Source: Candidatus Bathyarchaeota archaeon (GTDB lineage: Archaea; Thermoproteota; Bathyarchaeia; TCS64). From it: a stretch of 14,500 nucleotides of DNA. The stretch lies in the NCBI GenBank assembly GCA_043826455.1, contig JBDRQD010000011.1, positions 1 to 14,500 of the forward strand. The letters run 5' to 3'. The position numbers were made by a program. Shown one piece after another: positions 1 through 12,000 of the stretch (the stretch's first letter is position 1; every line of letters begins with the position of its first letter).

Positions 1-3000
1 ATAAGGTGGCTGCCCGACTTCTACATGTTTATACCCCTGGGGCTGAGCGCCGGCATGGTGTACTGGCTGGCCAGGGGCTACGCCACCGAGAAAGCCGTCA
101 ACGAGTACCATGAGAGCGGCCTACAGCGCATCACAACCTACCCCTTCGACGACGAAGGCCGAGGCATCATAGTAGACGCGGGACCCCAATACTGGCGAAC
201 CGGCTTCATCAAAACCATACCGCTAGCGATTGAGGGCAAGGAGGGCTACCTGCCCCTAGAGATCAACGGGGTAAGCTACCCCCAGATAATCACCAAGGGA
301 GACGGCTACACCAAAACCGACAACGAGGTGAAGATCAAGAGCGACTGGAGCCTGGCCCAGGCGTTCGCAGAGGCCCGGCTCATCGAGAAGCTACAGAAGA
401 AGGTGGCCGAGATGGAGCTGGCCCAGATGCTCATGAACAGAGCTCTACCCGTGGTGGTGGTTAACAAGATGAAGTTCTTCGAGGCTACGCTGCGGGAAAA
501 CATACTCAGCAAGACCCTCAACCCGGAGCAGCTACACGTACACGTTAAGGACGCCACCAGGAAGCTCACCGAGGAGCTTCAGAAGGTGATGCCCGTACAG
601 CAGCAGCAGGAGGAGCCCGATGGCCAAGGATAAGCCCCAGATGGATAACCTCACCCTGCTGGCTGCCCGGCAGGGGAAAGTAGGTGACAAGATACTCGAA
701 GCATCCAATAAAACCGGGGGCATGAATACGAAGGAGTGGGCCACGCTCCTCAACTTCGACATCCCTGAGACCATTGTAACAAGTCCCTCGGAGCGCACCC
801 GCAAAGCGATTGAAACCCTGACCAGAACAGAAGGGTATAGCGTACCCGAGAACCTATCGGAGCTATTCTGGATGATTTTTGACGACTTCGCCGCATCACG
901 CCAAGAGTATGTCCGGCGTGGATGGACCACCTTGGAGCCCGATCAACCAGAGTCGAAGAGCAGCATGACCAGCCCCCTCGAAGCCGAGGCGGTGATGGGA
1001 CCCCTCAAACACGAGGAGAAGGACGATGAGTAGAAGAACCAGACAGCGGAGACCCCGCCCCAGGCGGGATAAGGGACAGGGCATAGGCGCCCCAAGCAGA
1101 AGCATGGCCGAGAAGGAGCCCTACACCTTCACCGAGAGGGACGTAGAGGCGCTGAGGCAAATACACGCCACACGTTCATGGCAGGCACAGAGGACAGATG
1201 AGCACCTGATCGCACCCATAGCCCCATCGCCCAGCCACTGGATCAAACACCCAGGCCGCCTGGACGTACCCGGCGTAGACTACCCTGACACCAAGGCCCG
1301 CAAGGCGATGGAGAAACGCAGCGAGGCCGCACAGAGAACCGACAAAGCCCTGGAGGCTCCGCTGGCGCCCACACCCGAGGAGTGGATGAAGCACCCCGAG
1401 AAGTACGACTACCCCGGCGTAGACACCAGGCAGAAAACTGAAGCCAAAGAGGCTAGGGTAGATGAGCAAAAGATCGGTAACCCCATGGCTGCGCCCGACG
1501 CCGCTAAGAAGTTCCTGGCCGACGTCGTGGAGAAGTATCGGCGGAAGCTGGACATCAAAGGCCCGGTGAAGCTGAGCGCCCAGAACCGAGGCACCCCGGC
1601 CCGCATCCGCCACTTCGCCGGCGGCAGGACGCCCCAGATAGAGGTCAACTACAGCCACTTCGCAGGCGTCTGGGAGAAGGACCCGGAGCTCACCCAGAAG
1701 TACCTGGAGTACGCCATAGCCCACGAGCTATCCCACCAGAAACAGTACGAGGACCTGGGCCACAAGGGATACCGGAAAGCCTTCTCGGTGGCCAAGGTGG
1801 AAGGCGAGTGGGACGCCGACCAGCGTGCCCTCAAAGCCATGGGCATCACAGGCAAGGACCTGGACGACTTCATGGACCGGCTGGCCAAGAAGAGCGGCGG
1901 CGTCCACGAGAAGGCTCACCCGCCCTTCAAGGGCACCCCGAACATAGAGCGCTTCAAGGACACCACTCCCCTGAACAAGCCTAAATCCGCGCCGGAGAGG
2001 ATGAGGGAGCTCTACGTGAAAGCCCTGGGCGGAGTGTTACCCACCGCCACCCAGGAGGAGCTGAAGCGGATCACGGAGAAGGCCATGGCGGAGGAGTGGA
2101 TCAAGCCCGGCGACGAAGCCAAATCCGCCATGAAGCGGGTGGGAGACCTGGCCAAGGCTGAGCTGGTGAAGCTTCGGCAGGAGAAGGCCCACCTGGAGAG
2201 GGAGGAGCAGTTGAAGCGCCTCAAGGAGCTAAAAGAGAAGCACGAGGCTAAGACCAGCGACGAGGAGAGGAGCCGGCAGCGCCTGGCCACGCTAAGGGAG
2301 GACTACGGGGTTCAGTACGACACCGCGCTGAGCGCGGCCATGGACATCAACGTCAAAGGCTACAGCAGGAAACTCTACGGTGACCTCATAAAAATGGGGT
2401 ACAGCCAGGCGGAGGCAGCCGAGATCAGCAGCACCTTCAACGAGGGCTTCATAAACCGCATCCAAGGCGAGGCGCTGAAGAAGCAAAGACAGGAAGCCAT
2501 GGACCTTGCAAGGGACGCCTTCGGGGAGGTCCCGGAGCTGTGGGAGGACGCGGTAAAGAAATACATGGCAACGGAGGTCGCCCAGAGGCCCATCCCCGGC
2601 ATGGTTGAGGCCGCCTACAGGGAGGCCCTGAGCAGCGTCAGAGACAGAACCAAACCCGAGAAGCCTCCTGAACCCATTGCCCCGAAAGAGCCTTTCAGTC
2701 AAGTAACCCAGCCTGAGTACAACAGGAAAACCGGCATGTACGAGGTCGTGCGCTACGACCCTGAAAAAGTGAGGACCACCAAGAAGCAGTTTAAGACCCT
2801 GGAGGAGGCCGAGCGATACCGTCAACGCCTTAAAGAGGCCGAGCAGAACGCCCCCGCCGCACCTAAACCCACCGTCAAGACCCGCTCAGAGTCCTACGAT
2901 TTCTACAGTGACCCCGGCCACGGCTGGCTCCGTGTGCCTATCAAGAGGCTGGAGGAGCTGGGCATCGCAGACGACATATCCAACGCCAGCTACGTGAAGG

Positions 3001-9000: not shown

Positions 9001-12000
9001 GTCCCTTGACGCGGTCCGAAGGCCCTTCCCATTGATCATCCAGGAGCCGTTGATGCCCTACCTGCTGGGCTGGCTTGAACGGGCAGGCAGTGGCTACCTT
9101 TTCCCCAGCCCACGTCGACTCGGGAGGCCTCTCAGCCGAGCCTGGGGCTACAAGACCGTTGTAAGAGTGGGTGAGAGAGCCGGGCTGGACATCTGGCCCC
9201 ACTGGCTCAGAAGCCAACGGGCCAGCCAGTTGGCGGCTGACTACAACCTCCAGGTTCTCGACCTGGTTGATTACTTCACTTGGCAGAAGGCGGACATGGC
9301 TCTTCATTACAGTCGGAGAGGCTGGGCCGGGCTGTTGGCGCGGATGAGGCCTCTGTCGCTGTACGTGTAGGAGGTGGGTTGAAGGTGTACGGTGGATGGT
9401 ATACTGCGGCAGCGTCGAACCTTAGCAACGAGTTAAAGGAGTGAGGTGGAGGCCTCAGAGGCTCAGGGAGGAGCTCTGCCCCGAGTGCCTTGAGAAGTAC
9501 GAGAAGGTGATGGAGGGTGGCTGTGAGCGATAGGCGGTACCGTCTGAACGCGGAGGAGCTTGAATTGGTCATCACCGGGCTAGTCTTCATCATCGACGGG
9601 GCTGAGGACCCCCGCCTCAGTGAGGCTGCCCTAGCTCTTGGCCGTCGCCTCTCTCAGGGCCGGCAGGGGAGGCCGGGCGGGAGGTGGACCCGGGAGGCGA
9701 ACCGGCTCTGGCTCTTGGCGGAGAGGCGTTCGGAGACCCGGAAATGGTGAATGGGGCCATTACTTTCGGCCATGTGTCTAATGGAGCCATTAAAAAGGCG
9801 TGAATATGCCTCCTTTCGGGAATCCGGGCGGTTTAACGGGTTTTCAGGTGGGTGGGCGGGCGTACGGTGCCTAAGGGGTATACTATAGTATAGAGGGGCG
9901 CCCGGGGGAAGGTTTTCGCGGGTTTTCTATCAGGGCCATGCTAAAGCTAGCTAAACAAGCCGATTGTTATCCTTACAGCCCTAAGGTTGACTTTTAACCA
10001 TTTAATATAATTCAATCCAAGCGCCAAGTCTGAAGAGCATCTATGGATAACGAACATTCAGAAGGCGGGTCAAGAGGTCAGCTTGAAATAGGTTCAACCA
10101 ATCACTCATCAGAATAAACGGGGAAGAGGACCTTTTCATATTCTTTATGTACACATTTAAGTTTGATAGATCCACAGACTAAATTCCATTATGCACTGGA
10201 TCTGTGGAATAGTTTAAGCTCGCTTAGGCGTGAAAGCATAGTCATCCCTAGTCTAGAAGATTAAAAATAAAGTAAAGAAAATGGGGTTTGTGGGTTTAGC
10301 CCGCGATCCTTCTGCTTATCTGCATAAGGCTTACGATTGCTGCGTTGGTGGCTGCTGTGGACGCTGCGCTGGGGTTGAAGGATAGAGGATATTGTAAAGC
10401 GTACGAGTACCTGGAGAAGCACACTGGGCTTCTTGTAACCTTCGCGGAGCTGGCGTTGGAGGGCGTTGAGGTGCCTTACACTACTAACCGGGTGGAGCGG
10501 CTCATGGGTGAGGTGGCGAAGCGTTGTAAGAACAGGTGGATGCACTGGAGCACAGAGGGACTGGAGAACCTGTTGAACATTCTACTGGTGAAATATTGTG
10601 ACAAGGAGCTGTATGCCAGTTTGAAGGAGAAGTATTATAGCGATGCGGAGGCTGTCATCAATGTGAAGGCAACGTAGTGAAAAGTTGCCATGTAACATTG
10701 TTTCATTCCGCCTCTAATGGCGTCAGCCAATATCCGTTAACCAATAAGCAGACGGCACCAAGATTTGAGCATTAGTGTAATCGCTAAAAGAAGCCGTCAA
10801 TCACCACATACAACAAGTATCACCAGACTAGACTGCTGATAGATACTAGAAAATAGAATAAGGAATAAACCACCGTGAAAACCGTTGAAGATAAGCCACG
10901 CCTCTCGTAAACCCAGAACATGGCCAAGGCTCCGAAGAACCCAAAAGGAATGTTATACAGGATCCGAGACTTGTTCGTCTCAAACGAAACAAAGTAGACC
11001 AGCGAAGACAAAATGACGAGGAACCATAGCCAACGCCCAGGGACATCATCAACCTTAAGAATGTACAGACCTATCGTGGCCAGCCCCAGCAAGACAAGGT
11101 TAGAGATGAACCCGCCGTAGATGTATGGGAAACAGAAGAAGAGACTGCTCCAGATATCGCCAAAGTCTACGAGGCCACTTACCGCCGTCGAGGTCACTGC
11201 CACCCCACCACCGCCCCCCAATGCCACAATCTTAACCACCTCGGCCAACCCCACCACCCCCAAGTAACCCCCAAGATAAAAGGCCCGGTTCTCGTACTTA
11301 GGCCCCCTCCGATACAGTACAAGGCCTATGATAGGCACCAGGCCCACGAGGTACTGGTCCATAGTCCAAGGATGAGTATAAACTAATAGACTGCCAACAA
11401 GAGAAGCCAACCCCAAGATTCTAAGGTTTTCCTCACGGATCGCCCGGAACAGCAGCCCCAGGGAGAAGAGAACTATGCTCAGAGCCAGAAGATTAGACAA
11501 GAAGAACGCATACAGACCCACCGTCACAGTCATACCGGTAGAGGAGAGGAAGGCACACCACGCCGCCAGCCGTGAGTTCCTAAAGATCTCCCAAGAAAAA
11601 TAGTACGACGCCAACACAAACATGGGATTAAGCAAGACCGGCAGAAACTGTAGCGCCGTGTGAGTGTCTAACCCGGTCACCCACCTGAACCCATAGAAGA
11701 AGAGGAAAAAGAACAGCCGCTGAGCCCCCACACCACTGGTCAGCCCACCCCACATATCTTCAACCGAGTAGAACCACTGGAAATAATGGGGGAGATCCAC
11801 CCCGAAGTCCACACCACTGAGATTCACCGAGGGAAAATAGGGGTAAACAGCCGCATATACCGAGAGGAACACAGAGAACCCCAGGAGCAACCTGCTAAAC
11901 CTATCAAACTCAGACTCACCCACCGTCAACTCCGGGAGCCTGAGCTTAACCCCTAACAACGGTTTAATCAACCAGAAGAAGAGGAAAGGCAATACAAGAA

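Follow-up and report, generated by a model that had tools for sequence, protein, structure and literature searches.

An arginine-rich N-terminal leader shared by unrelated proteins of a Bathyarchaeia mobile element, and its possible role as a delivery tag

We analyzed a window of 14,500 nucleotides, the whole of contig C11 from a Candidatus Bathyarchaeota genome, and found that three adjacent genes encode proteins (of 1730, 134/137 and 302 aa) with one N-terminal start, M..RR..RR.RPRRD.G.G(V/I)..P.RS – an arginine-rich leader of ~27 residues. This leader is strictly N-terminal and is found on proteins that are otherwise unrelated; it moves from gene to gene and follows the element that carries it. 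Positions 1–9993 form a single operon of tightly coupled genes at a Bathyarchaeia mobile element's right end, best explained as the distal operon of an element that is integrated or in the course of integrating. We tentatively read the leader, at somewhat short of even odds, as a tag at the N-terminus by which soluble cargo proteins are delivered or packaged. The operon comprises seven genes that point in the same direction and overlap one another by 4–20 nt, followed by a conserved end:

1–633, forward: 3′ part (last 202–210 codons) of the gene for a ~394-aa membrane-module protein; 5′-open ORF, cut by the contig start
620–1033, forward: 137-aa acidic protein lacking the leader (net charge −8, pI 4.8)
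1026–6218, forward: 1730-aa multi-domain protein with leader, HExxH (zincin-like) region, repeats and predicted C-terminal PCNA-fold domain
1026–1106, forward: leader copy 1, MSRRTRQRRPRPRRDKGQGIGAPSRSM, of the 1730-aa protein
1722–1736, forward: HELSH, zincin-type HExxH motif (residues 233–237)
5448–6209, forward: predicted PCNA-fold (sliding-clamp-like) domain (residues ~1475–1728)
6210–6218, forward: GGTGTCTAA, left 9-bp direct repeat of a two-gene cassette; contains the large gene's last codons and stop
6220–6624, forward: 134-aa leader protein g00333 (alternative GTG start at 6211, 137 aa)
6220–6297, forward: leader of g00333
6605–7513, forward: 302-aa leader protein g00334 with invariant DGHHRWSQ, possibly ParB/Srx-like
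6605–6682, forward: leader of g00334
7505–7513, forward: GGTGTCTAA, right 9-bp direct repeat; contains the 302-aa gene's stop and the ATPase gene's GTG start
7506–8693, forward: 395-aa P-loop ATPase belonging to the FtsK/HerA superfamily, with a C-terminal wHTH (~346–394)
8690–9370, forward: 226-aa tyrosine recombinase, catalytic domain only
9517–9750, forward: 77-aa ORF conserved 3′ of the recombinase gene (two tandem copies on contig C67)
9751–9993: conserved non-coding module end, probable right border of the element
9879–9892: 14-nt palindrome TATACTATAGTATA within the module end

The initial annotation counted six leaders. The regular expression R[PK]RRD.G.G reproduces that number in a six-frame scan of the genome (all on C11, C8 and C49), but a looser pattern raises the count: it gave 11 matches in 5.89 million six-frame residues, against two on reversed translations as a control, and nine of the 11 are true N-terminal leaders (three on C11, two on C8 and one each on C13, C1, C45 and C49). 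The remaining two, on C30 and C57, lie in short non-ORF frames and were rejected as chance matches. All nine leaders open an ORF and sit on four protein families unrelated in sequence (best BLASTP E between families 0.54 once the first 30 residues are removed). A leader profile searched against 1,835,955,588 representative proteins returned 16 matches in proteins of 87 to 1730 aa; every one begins at residue 1 and belongs to the C11-type element family. The earlier description of a shared, strictly N-terminal leader on otherwise unrelated proteins is thus borne out, and the leader remains N-terminal even where segments have been inserted behind it (P0008 and C45_200).

Selection acts on the leader as a peptide and not as DNA, since comparisons between leaders of unrelated genes give a dN of 0.09–0.24 while dS runs from 0.52 to saturated; 6–11 of the 17–22 identical residues are encoded by different codons. 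Leaders also cluster by element rather than by protein family. The leader of the C11 large protein is 85% identical to that of an unrelated 179-aa protein on C8, as is that of the C11 DGHHRW protein to a 179-aa protein on C1; the two leaders of genome G234 are 72% identical, and those of two proteins that both list one 16,894-nt ENA contig 81%. Orthologous leaders compared across elements, by contrast, share 48–69% identity, and within the 179-aa family the paralogues show 78% identity over the body, against 56% over the leader.

An element present in several copies had been proposed. One gene order does recur on several small contigs: module ends chain them together (the end of C52 and C20 matches the start of C1 and C45, C1 the middle of C8, and the end of C8 the starts of both C11 and C13), and the distal module of C11 has copies on C8 (95/80/67% aa identity) and C13 (29/30/61/53%). 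Placing these copies in one genome is less secure, given 7.2% contamination of the bin and no copy assembled end to end. There is a real, if lesser, chance that binning accounts for part of the multiplicity, the diverged copies coming from several strains or species that were co-assembled, or from free virus or plasmid genomes placed in their host's bin. Besides the contamination, the copies diverge by 10–40% in DNA, lie on short contigs of 2–14 kb with a GC of 0.61–0.62 (about 0.58–0.59 on long contigs), and have near-identical pieces in another study's runs; the unitigs of run X1 have a word-depth of 21–26 on the element and 10–13 in the flank, word-depth being no copy number. Against an artefact, the element end on C11 itself continues into 4.5 kb of different DNA (with IS remnants, a gene for a membrane protein and an IS200/605 tnpA-tnpB pair), the same recombinase module is carried by the 46-kb contig C67, and related modules lie within longer contigs of other Bathyarchaeia bins (e.g., the 55-kb G276:C15).

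Consistent with the initial annotation, almost none of the element's genes are recognizable: 22 of a 37-protein subset had no PHROG family at E ≤ 0.01, and Pfam and PHROG searches of these 37 and of the window's own proteins detected no capsid, portal, terminase, pilin or VirB4/VirD4 pair. As no capsid gene was found, the element may be either a virus or a conjugative element. The same scans confirmed the Rce1-like protease (PF02517, E 2e-7) and a D5-type primase-helicase. Within the window, the truncated first product shares 95% identity with the last 202 aa of a 394-aa ORF (C8:3288–4469) and has relatives in L088 and L157, with no Pfam or PHROG family. The acidic 137-aa protein has no Pfam or NCBIfam family and is retained in related elements, adjoining the large protein or the ATPase.

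Two features of the 1730-aa protein are new to this analysis: a PCNA-fold end and an invariant HExxH. Its homologues (491–1730 aa) all begin with the leader, and each full-length one listed retains HE[LM][AS]H; the Atlas points this region to M78/U49/M48 peptidases at 0.84–0.88, a lead only. Four NCBIfam sliding-clamp models match the C-terminal end at E 1.2e-5 to 1e-4, all below their curated cut-offs, and two of the matches span nearly the whole model. The predicted structure of residues 1440–1730 (AF2; pLDDT 88.4, pTM 0.81) has a clamp-like fold, its top Foldseek matches in the PDB all being PCNA (best 5a6d, E 4.4e-13).

The two smaller leader genes form an indel cassette bounded by GGTGTCTAA, which had not been described. 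This 9-mer occurs in the window at 6210 and 7505 only, and on C13 it links the large gene straight to the ATPase gene, without g00333 and g00334; a contig of run X4 likewise connects 6209 to 7505 (weak, side 27). Gene order in G234 differs. g00333 matched no Pfam, PHROG or NCBIfam family, and P0047 is the sole family member found. In g00334, the DGHHRWSQ reported earlier is invariant in 29 of 29 aligned homologues; leaderless relatives at 28–39% identity occur in 344 IMG/VR stretches, and more distant DGHHRW homologues have other basic N-termini or none. The protein had been called ParB-like. Its DG.HR motif hints at such a relationship, but beyond that the label is weakly supported (Pfam ParBc_2 matched one of 29 homologues, at E 0.053; PDB 1vk1 E 0.89).

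The downstream gene encodes an ATPase with a Walker A motif at residue 60 and DE at 204–205. Our structure model (pLDDT 71.2, versus 84 in the initial annotation) recovered the targets named there, and it predicts an FtsK/HerA fold with a C-terminal HTH: Foldseek matched HerA (8xau, E 5e-8; 8wj3, E 4e-7) and STIV2 B204 (4kfr, E 1.2e-7, TM to target 0.76, or 0.75–0.78 for B204 in all; Z 18.5, rmsd 2.5 Å over 198 of 204 residues), and the best BFVD match is the Haloarcula hispanica virus PH1 ATPase (E 9.3e-10). The core thus resembles packaging NTPases of tailless membrane viruses (B204, PH1 ATPase, A32-like), and the element, like them, has many membrane proteins. Cellular HerA (Z 20–22), VirB4 (18.4) and TrwB (17.8) give comparable or higher scores; the ATPase is twice as long as B204, with an N-terminal extension and the wHTH, and no jelly-roll capsid gene was found adjoining its gene. 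Pfam finds TrwB_AAD_bind in 10 of 12 family members and FtsK_SpoIIIE in three, and the family profile matches TcpA at E 4.8e-4; the TcpA structure 6o1x scores Z 15.8. Recognition helices at the C-terminus are present in FtsK and Streptomyces TraB. The ATPase resembles FtsK/SpoIIIE, TcpA of pCW3 and TrwB in being a P-loop pump of one superfamily, coupled to a C-terminal winged helix that might recognize a site on the transported DNA. Unlike them, it has no membrane anchor in a hydropathy scan, and no other type IV secretion gene occurs in the contigs scanned.

The tyrosine recombinase is also new, as are the 620 conserved bp that follow its gene. The recombinase matches PF00589 (E 3.7e-7; 30.5 bits, cut-off 27.1) and the integrase family PHROG_1 (E 4.8e-12), and R58, K88, H171, R174, W198 and Y207 are invariant in four of four homologues; in G168:C259 and G096:C25 its gene likewise follows the ATPase gene. 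The distal module had been thought to end at 9370. DNA similarity between C11 and C67 stops at 9993, and we moved the probable right border there; beyond this point GC drops from ~0.60 to 0.45, and one listed X1 unitig terminates at it. The module end has no Rfam or tRNA match, and a search for the att sites postulated earlier found none.

We propose that the leader is a transferable address tag on a variable set of soluble proteins – the large protein with its zincin motif and PCNA fold, the DGHHRW protein, the 134-aa protein and the modular 179-aa family, several of which have DNA-related domains. Tagged cargo would be loaded together with element DNA into a carrier (virion, vesicle or mating channel), the neighbouring ATPase, with its FtsK/HerA fold and wHTH, would recognize and pump that DNA, and the recombinase and conserved end may serve integration or resolution. 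The delivery or packaging meaning, like any partner that would read the tag or cut it off, is inferred. Several observations favor delivery: the leader is strictly N-terminal, is selected as a peptide and tracks the element rather than the protein; every tagged protein is soluble (19-aa windows of hydropathy ≥1.6 are absent from all of them but number 62 in the window's membrane protein), while a leader scan of the element contigs found no match on membrane-module proteins, ATPase or recombinase; the tagged genes share an overlapping operon with the membrane module and the DNA-pumping ATPase; and cargo genes are optional, the g00333–g00334 cassette being present in C11 and absent from C13.

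Known systems offer partial precedents. In phage T4, a short N-terminal capsid targeting sequence on unrelated proteins decides which of them travel with the DNA, and cargo sets vary. T4 internal proteins and the ejection proteins of large phages resemble the present case in having a short N-terminal peptide common to unrelated proteins of one element; here, however, the leader is ~27 residues long and Arg-rich, the host is archaeal, and there is no known capsid, scaffold or prohead protease. A further precedent supporting a delivery tag is that of polyvalent proteins (Iyer, Burroughs, Anand, de Souza, Aravind 2017; PMC5512222), described in the sections drawn on here as very large multi-domain proteins with zincin-type peptidase and ParB domains, found with ParB/Srx-type proteins, whose genes adjoin those for packaging or transfer in phages and conjugative elements and which are delivered with the invading DNA. 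The element shares with them a large zincin-motif multi-domain protein and a ParB/Srx-type candidate adjoining a pump gene. It differs in that the carrier domains named there (MuF, portal, ArdC-N) were not seen, and in its predicted PCNA-fold end and common N-terminal tag, which are not among the features those sections describe; no sequence match to the polyvalent MPTase or DdrB-ParB families was obtained. Against a delivery tag, no particle is known and the scanned proteins include none of the carrier components sought above. Element-specific leader residues could also stem, instead of from co-evolution with a partner, from ancient gene conversion and later synonymous drift, which the within-element dS of 0.52 in G234 allows.

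It is possible, though we consider it unlikely, that the leader is a general nucleic-acid-binding arm that sorts nothing and gives enzymes working on nucleic acid of the element or host a higher affinity for DNA or RNA. The first 30 residues of g00333 and g00334 carry a net charge of +9 to +10 and the first 100 of the large protein +9; such charge would itself bind nucleic acid, and no receptor would be needed to explain selection. The recognizable domains are DNA-related (PCNA fold, DG.HR motif), and the distant DGHHRW homologues with other basic N-termini, or none, imply that this domain can do its own work without the tag. Arg-rich tails that bind packaged nucleic acid are, in the accounts drawn on, known from the hepatitis B core protein; viral tails of this kind resemble the leader in their arginine content and S/T-R-S-type motifs, and their proteins end up with the packaged nucleic acid, but those described lie on the capsid protein itself, rather than at Met1 of several unrelated non-structural proteins. 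A non-specific arm need not begin at Met1 in 25 of 25 cases, keep the non-basic D, G.G, P and S/T-R-S, or vary in step across unrelated proteins of one element.

A processing or stability signal is improbable as the leader's main role. It might be a pro-peptide cut by an element protease (either the Rce1-like membrane protease or the large protein's HExxH domain) or a degron controlling when DNA-acting proteins, potentially harmful ones, are active. On C1 the protease gene lies two genes behind a leader-bearing 179-aa gene, the large protein's HExxH is invariant, the conserved leader end P-(S/T)-R-S-(R/M) could be a cut site, and the N-terminal targeting peptides of T4 internal proteins are cut off after use. 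The link between leader and protease genes is absent in G096:C25, and cleavage would be compatible with a delivery tag.

Finally, it is very improbable that the repeat works at the level of DNA or RNA, be it as a start-site cassette, a recombination site or a regulatory hairpin, with the peptide a by-product: although operon junctions reuse short strings, as where the 9-mer flanks the two-gene cassette, and C11–C1 DNA similarity begins 14 nt upstream of the ATG, a small hairpin (CCCGCC-CCA-GGCGGG, read by eye) is present in three leader copies and lost in the other four listed, the peptide is conserved although synonymous sites are close to saturated, and the profile matches are defined on protein across elements with different codon usage.

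The source bin (G000) spans 2.95 Mb on 81 contigs, with a completeness of 97.7% and a contamination of 7.2%, and the contig analyzed here (C11) accounts for 14,500 bp of it. Seven plus-strand genes occupy this contig from base 1 to 9370 with start/stop overlaps of 4–20 nt, and therefore form one operon.

Features of the window up to position 9993
1–633, plus strand: 3′ part (~202 codons) of a gene truncated at the contig start; a full 394-aa form is present on C8
620–1033, plus strand: 137-aa acidic protein, pI 4.8
1026–6218, plus strand: 1730-aa protein, leader-bearing
6220–6624, plus strand: 134-aa protein, leader-bearing; alternative GTG start at 6211
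6605–7513, plus strand: 302-aa protein, leader-bearing
7506–8693, plus strand: 395-aa predicted ATPase
8690–9370, plus strand: 226-aa putative tyrosine recombinase
9517–9750, plus strand: 77-aa ORF behind the recombinase gene
up to 9993: conserved non-coding DNA behind the 77-aa ORF

The coding strand of positions 1–7000 holds far more A than T (AT skew 0.29–0.46), and the skew is ~0.1–0.2 over the ATPase and recombinase genes. A few short contigs from an RNA-library run (X13) match at 4440–4849, 7627–7837 and 9695–9841, which is not a demonstration of transcription.

We observed that the proteins starting at 1026, 6220 and 6605 open with one Arg-rich leader, M..(R/K)R..(R/K)RR.RPRRD.G.G(V/I)..P(S/T)RS(R/M). 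The initial annotation counted six leaders in the genome. A stricter regular expression reproduces these six in a six-frame genome translation, but a looser one raises the total to nine: it gives 11 matches in 5.89 million six-frame residues, nine of them N-terminal leaders (three on C11, two on C8 and one each on C13, C1, C45 and C49). The other two fall in short frames that are not ORFs and are put down to chance, and reversed translations likewise give two. The carriers were described as mutually unrelated, and this holds – with the first 30 residues removed, the best BLASTP match among the 1730-aa protein, the 134-aa protein, the 302-aa protein and a leader-bearing 179-aa family has an E value of 0.54.

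A leader profile built from 15 leaders (34 positions) and searched against 1,835,955,588 representative proteins at E≤0.001 matched 16 proteins, in every case from residue 1. These are large-protein homologues (491–1730 aa, plus one 111-aa fragment), the 179-aa family with its longer and shorter forms, and the 134-aa protein; none of the matches in this set lies outside the element family. The shortest 179-aa-family forms consist of the leader and a single ~55-aa domain. Among aligned homologues of the 302-aa protein, about 16 of 29 (counted by eye) carry the leader, down to a body identity of ~57%, and more distant ones have a different basic N-terminus or lack one. The leader was absent from all 80 fetched viral loci and all 48 non-Bathyarchaeia genome loci with 302-aa relatives.

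Insertions always lie behind the tag and never ahead of it. No hydrophobic segment follows the leader in any of the eight leader proteins scanned, in which the following sequence is polar; we therefore rejected a Sec, Tat or class III (pilin) signal peptide, all of which lack their hydrophobic core here. In four relatives of the 179-aa family (P0044, P0046, P0051 and P0058), a junction motif of the type S-M-S-Q-S-I-K-L-P precedes each repeated module, up to three times per protein, and could mark a domain edge or a processing site.

Comparing leaders of unrelated genes, we found a dN of 0.09–0.24 and a dS ranging from 0.52 to saturated, with differing codons at 6–11 of the 17–22 identical residues. 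Constraint thus acts on the peptide. Recent gene conversion as the origin of the likeness was rejected, given a dS of 0.5 or more.

Leader grouping follows the element, not the protein family. The leader of the large protein on C11 is 85% identical to that of the C8 179-aa protein, 53% to that of its C13 orthologue and 52% to that of its orthologue in G234, another genome; the leader of the C11 302-aa protein is 85% identical to that of the C1 179-aa protein and 48% to that of its G234 orthologue. The two leaders on G234:C46 are 72% identical to each other, and those of two proteins assigned to what is presumably, judged by its length, one 16,894-nt ENA contig are 81% alike. Likewise, three proteins that probably share a 44,124-nt JGI contig, to which each is assigned, have their own leader variant in common. 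Between C1 and C8, the bodies of the 179-aa paralogues share 78% identity and their leaders only 56%, which argues that the tag has been exchanged between genes.

The largest leader-bearing protein ends in a domain with the predicted fold of a sliding clamp. Four archaeal sliding-clamp NCBIfam models match residues ~1475–1728 of the 1730-aa protein, two of them nearly end to end, with E values of 1.2e-5 to 1e-4 that are all far under the curated cut-offs of 239–293 bits. An AF2 model of residues 1440–1730 (pLDDT 88.4, pTM 0.81) gave 5a6d as its best Foldseek match (E 4.4e-13, TM 0.52–0.62), and the PDB targets listed are all PCNA. Consistent with these matches, residues ~1475–1728 are predicted to adopt a two-domain clamp-protomer (PCNA) fold. 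Some large-protein homologues carry a tandem pair of clamp-like units, an arrangement at odds with a simple trimer. Further upstream, HELSH at residues 233–237 conforms to the HExxH motif and is kept in all full-length homologues printed; a weak Atlas lead points to M78/U49/M48 peptidases (0.84–0.88). A phmmer search of the large protein against PDB sequences gave no match at E≤1. Polyvalent proteins (Iyer et al. 2017) join several effector domains to a zincin-like peptidase in a single polypeptide, encoded by a virus or plasmid near delivery genes. The invariant HExxH, the PCNA-fold end and the adjacent gene for a putative pumping ATPase only hint that the large protein might be one of them, a comparison drawn from features and not from family profiles. 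A predicted PCNA-fold domain fused to a huge zincin-bearing protein bears on co-delivered anti-defence or replication-priming proteins.

The 302-aa protein had been annotated as ParB-like. Its string DGHHRWSQ is indeed invariant in 29 of 29 family sequences, but profile support for the name is weak: Pfam ParBc_2 matches one of the 29 members (E 0.053), the PHROG 'ParB-like partition protein' gives E 0.045, and PDB entry 1vk1 (E 0.89) matches the DGHHRW string only. P0036, a distant database match, carries a precomputed PF08857. Membership of the ParB/Srx superfamily is therefore only hinted at by sequence. Relatives at 28–39% identity turn up often in viral contigs, in 344 of the 604 IMG/VR stretches that were candidates, and a scan of metagenome contigs with the 302-aa protein returned three loci, none with context.

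The genes for the 134-aa and 302-aa proteins behave as an optional cassette. The string GGTGTCTAA is present at just two positions of the window, 6210 and 7505, bracketing exactly these two small leader genes, and on C13, where both small genes are absent, the same string links the large gene to the ATPase gene. A contig from a sequencing run of another study (X4) also joins 6209 to 7505, a junction that is weak alone, with a short side of 27 letters and 90% likeness. Like the fused PCNA-fold domain, a two-gene cargo cassette bounded by a 9-bp repeat bears on co-delivered anti-defence or replication-priming proteins.

Downstream of the cassette, the 395-aa protein is predicted to be a P-loop ATPase with Walker A and B (DE) motifs and a RecA-like core of the HerA/FtsK type. 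Residues G60, T62, G63, G65, K66 and T67 (Walker A) and D204–E205 are invariant in 12 sequences. An AF2 model (pLDDT 71.2) aligned by VIA-align gave Z scores of 20–22 for HerA (21.9 at an rmsd of 2.9 over 246 aligned residues), 18.4 for VirB4, 17.8 for TrwB, 15.8 for TcpA and 14.3 for FtsK; for B204 of the virus STIV2, Z was 18.5 with an rmsd of 2.5 Å over 198 of 204 residues. Among viral models, the Haloarcula hispanica virus PH1 ATPase ranks first, with A32-like packaging ATPases next. Pfam matches among the 12 family members are all weak (DUF87 in 4, FtsK_SpoIIIE in 3, TrwB_AAD_bind in 10), and phmmer against PDB sequences gave no match at E≤1. The C-terminal ~50 residues form a winged-helix HTH, with HTH_24 in 5 of 12 homologues and chains of the Lrp/AsnC type by profile. 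The HerA alignments and this domain thus bear out the earlier description of a HerA/FtsK-type ATPase with a C-terminal HTH.

A type IV coupling protein (VirD4/TrwB) was rejected as an identity for this ATPase: no 19-aa window reaches a hydropathy of 1.6, so that a membrane anchor is missing, and the VirB4, VirB6 and pilin families are absent from the contigs scanned of an element that is not assembled whole. The B204/A32-like packaging ATPases of jelly-roll viruses are encoded beside a gene for a jelly-roll major capsid protein. Pfam and PHROG searches of 37 element proteins, and of those encoded in the window, returned no family of capsids, portals, terminases, pilins or VirB4, which agrees with the initial annotation as to the missing capsid gene – though a divergent jelly roll could escape such searches. 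At window positions 8050–8140 (residues ~181–210), the ATPase has an acidic insertion with a net charge of −13 and low pLDDT. This loop was considered as a docking site for the basic tag and rejected, since the homologues in G234 and G096 lack it.

Homologues order the contigs from the replication and middle module through the membrane-protein module to the distal operon, in keeping with the single gene order proposed earlier. The middle module (C52/C20) encodes a D5-type primase-helicase (PHROG E 1e-75), DUF5131 and zinc-ribbon proteins, and the membrane-protein module encodes an Rce1-like protease and a CBM96-type surface protein. Contig C37, which carries a Dam methylase and an ASCH protein, had been taken for the early module of the same element, but homologue searches do not link it into this chain. 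In a distant relative (G096:C25), the membrane module and distal operon are contiguous on 13 kb, and a diverged leader opens two of its proteins. The bin holds four copies of the membrane module (C1, C7, C8 and C49) and three of the distal module (C11, C8 and C13). Among 401 sampled Bathyarchaeia genomes, 9 encode the ATPase and 19 have module DNA matches; these 19 include 10 of the 31 further members of the genus.

A limited literature search, which is not proof, found neither the leader nor the element family described in the portions of text covered. A term search of the available text of a paper on Bathyarchaeia viruses returned no mention of PCNA, ParB, HerA or FtsK. The parts available of a paper on thaumarchaeal integrated elements describe proviruses of the jelly-roll type that encode FtsK-HerA ATPases, as well as conjugative elements that encode VirB4/VirD4; neither gene set, as given there, matches that of the element.

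The Bathyarchaeia are an abundant group of uncultured archaea. The signature of a sorting signal is a short tag found strictly at the N-terminus of unrelated proteins, under selection as a peptide and in step within an element. The leader has these marks: it is fixed at Met1, portable, peptide-selected, confined to soluble proteins, presumably co-expressed with the membrane module and the putative DNA pump, and in step within each element. Two precedents come nearest to it: the capsid-targeting peptides at the N-terminus of phage internal proteins, and the co-delivered polyvalent proteins known from phages and from conjugative elements. Peptides of the T4 CTS type direct proteins into the particle and are then removed by a maturation protease; they are N-terminal, common to unrelated proteins of one element and transferable between proteins, all three of which are seen for the leader. 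Polyvalent proteins of phages and conjugative elements are described, in parts of PMC5512222, as delivered with the DNA and as combining zincin and ParB domains. Because of these marks and precedents we tentatively favor a delivery or packaging tag, as a serious possibility rather than a probable one. A membrane-containing virus, a vesicle and a mating channel are all candidate vehicles, since the fold of the ATPase is as close to viral packaging enzymes as it is to pumps of cells or of conjugative elements.

A more far-reaching version, which we consider unlikely, is that the leader is a new archaeal protein-export or packaging signal – portable, element-specific and read by an element-encoded receptor – that loads exchangeable proteins delivered with the DNA, and that the element family is a new type of archaeal virus or DNA-transfer system lacking any capsid or type IV secretion gene yet known. 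Candidates for the receptor would then be the ATPase with the FtsK/HerA fold and the membrane-module proteins, and the clamp-tethered zincin protein, the DGHHRW protein and the small cassette proteins would be the cargo that goes with the DNA into the next cell.

A plain nucleic-acid-binding arm would explain the charge of the leader but leaves the fixed position, the conserved non-basic residues and the element-specific variants unexplained, and we regard it as doubtful. We consider it improbable that the leader is a processing or stability signal, a role that may coexist with that of a tag. The codon data contradict the idea that the leader repeat acts at the level of DNA or RNA, a reading that we hold to be very improbable. 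A sorting tag would provide a handle on an otherwise unreadable ~40-kb element, as it would predict co-travelling proteins, and could be used for fishing out the machinery that reads it and for metagenome searches for further members.

The last gene of the operon (8690–9370) encodes a tyrosine recombinase of the phage integrase family (PF00589). The Pfam match covers residues 40–189 of 226 aa (30.5 bits, cut-off 27.1, E 3.7e-7), the G096 homologue matches the same family at E 7.4e-14, and PHROG_1 matches at E 4.8e-12. R58, K88, H171, R174, W198 and Y207, with roles assigned by motif position and not by structure, are invariant in all four homologues. The same small recombinase gene lies behind the ATPase gene and overlaps it in G096:C25, and adjoins it in G168:C259. 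C67, a further contig of the bin, carries the same recombinase at 79% aa identity together with the 77-aa ORF, present twice in tandem, and the conserved end, all beside different genes. At this second locus (L001 2872–9440) they stand behind proteins of 563 and 273 aa and an Xer-like recombinase of 324 aa, and a 2089-aa YD/RHS-repeat protein with small downstream genes (L001 9386–18073) directly follows. An ORF of ~50 codons directly behind the recombinase is open on C67 (L001 8512–8660) and apparently interrupted by a 1-nt alignment gap on C11 (9371–9516).

Three hints place the right border of the element near 9993: the likeness to C67 ends there, GC drops there, and a unitig of the probable source run ends there, among the unitigs listed. 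The distal module had been described as C11:1–9370 and as ending with the ATPase. The ATPase does belong to the module, but the recombinase, the 77-aa ORF and conserved DNA follow it as far as this border. Looking for att sites, we found no direct repeat flanking the C67 copy, no second copy of the C11 end (9750–10100) in the genome beyond chance 14-mers, and no tRNA or Rfam match at the element end. The conserved non-coding end contains a perfect 14-nt palindrome, TATACTATAGTATA (9879–9892), flanked by GGGG on both sides and partly kept on C67, which may serve as a recombinase site or as a promoter. Word-depths of source-run unitigs are 21–26 over 6123–9993 and 10–13 over 10343–14299; these are not copy numbers, and thus give only a hint of a higher abundance of the element relative to its flank.

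Beyond 9993 the DNA turns AT-richer, and it goes on to hold an 86-nt repeat, the remnant of a Mutator-type transposase, a gene for a membrane protein in the opposite orientation and an IS200/605 tnpA-tnpB pair. The repeat (10257–10344) has one more copy on C48 and two on C30 (88–92% identity), and the adjacent 110-aa remnant (10345–10677) matches the Mutator family at E 0.0021; contigs of the RNA-library run reach a depth of ~18 over this region. The 558-aa polytopic membrane protein (10820–12496, minus strand) adjoins the element end in lower-GC DNA and has no family in Pfam, PHROG or NCBIfam. Runs X2 and X4 leave ~11,133–14,036 without cover, which proves nothing. A custom script found no CRISPR array in the bin, and short matches of 25–43 nt in other Bathyarchaeia genomes are imperfect or lie on the P-loop. 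The IS200/IS605 pair (12770–14500) consists of tnpA (Y1_Tnp, E 1.7e-31) and a tnpB-type gene (Cas12f1-like TNB domain, E 2.5e-26) cut by the contig end. Word-depths over the final ~460 bases are 680–820 in two runs of another study, so that the contig end is a very abundant repeat.
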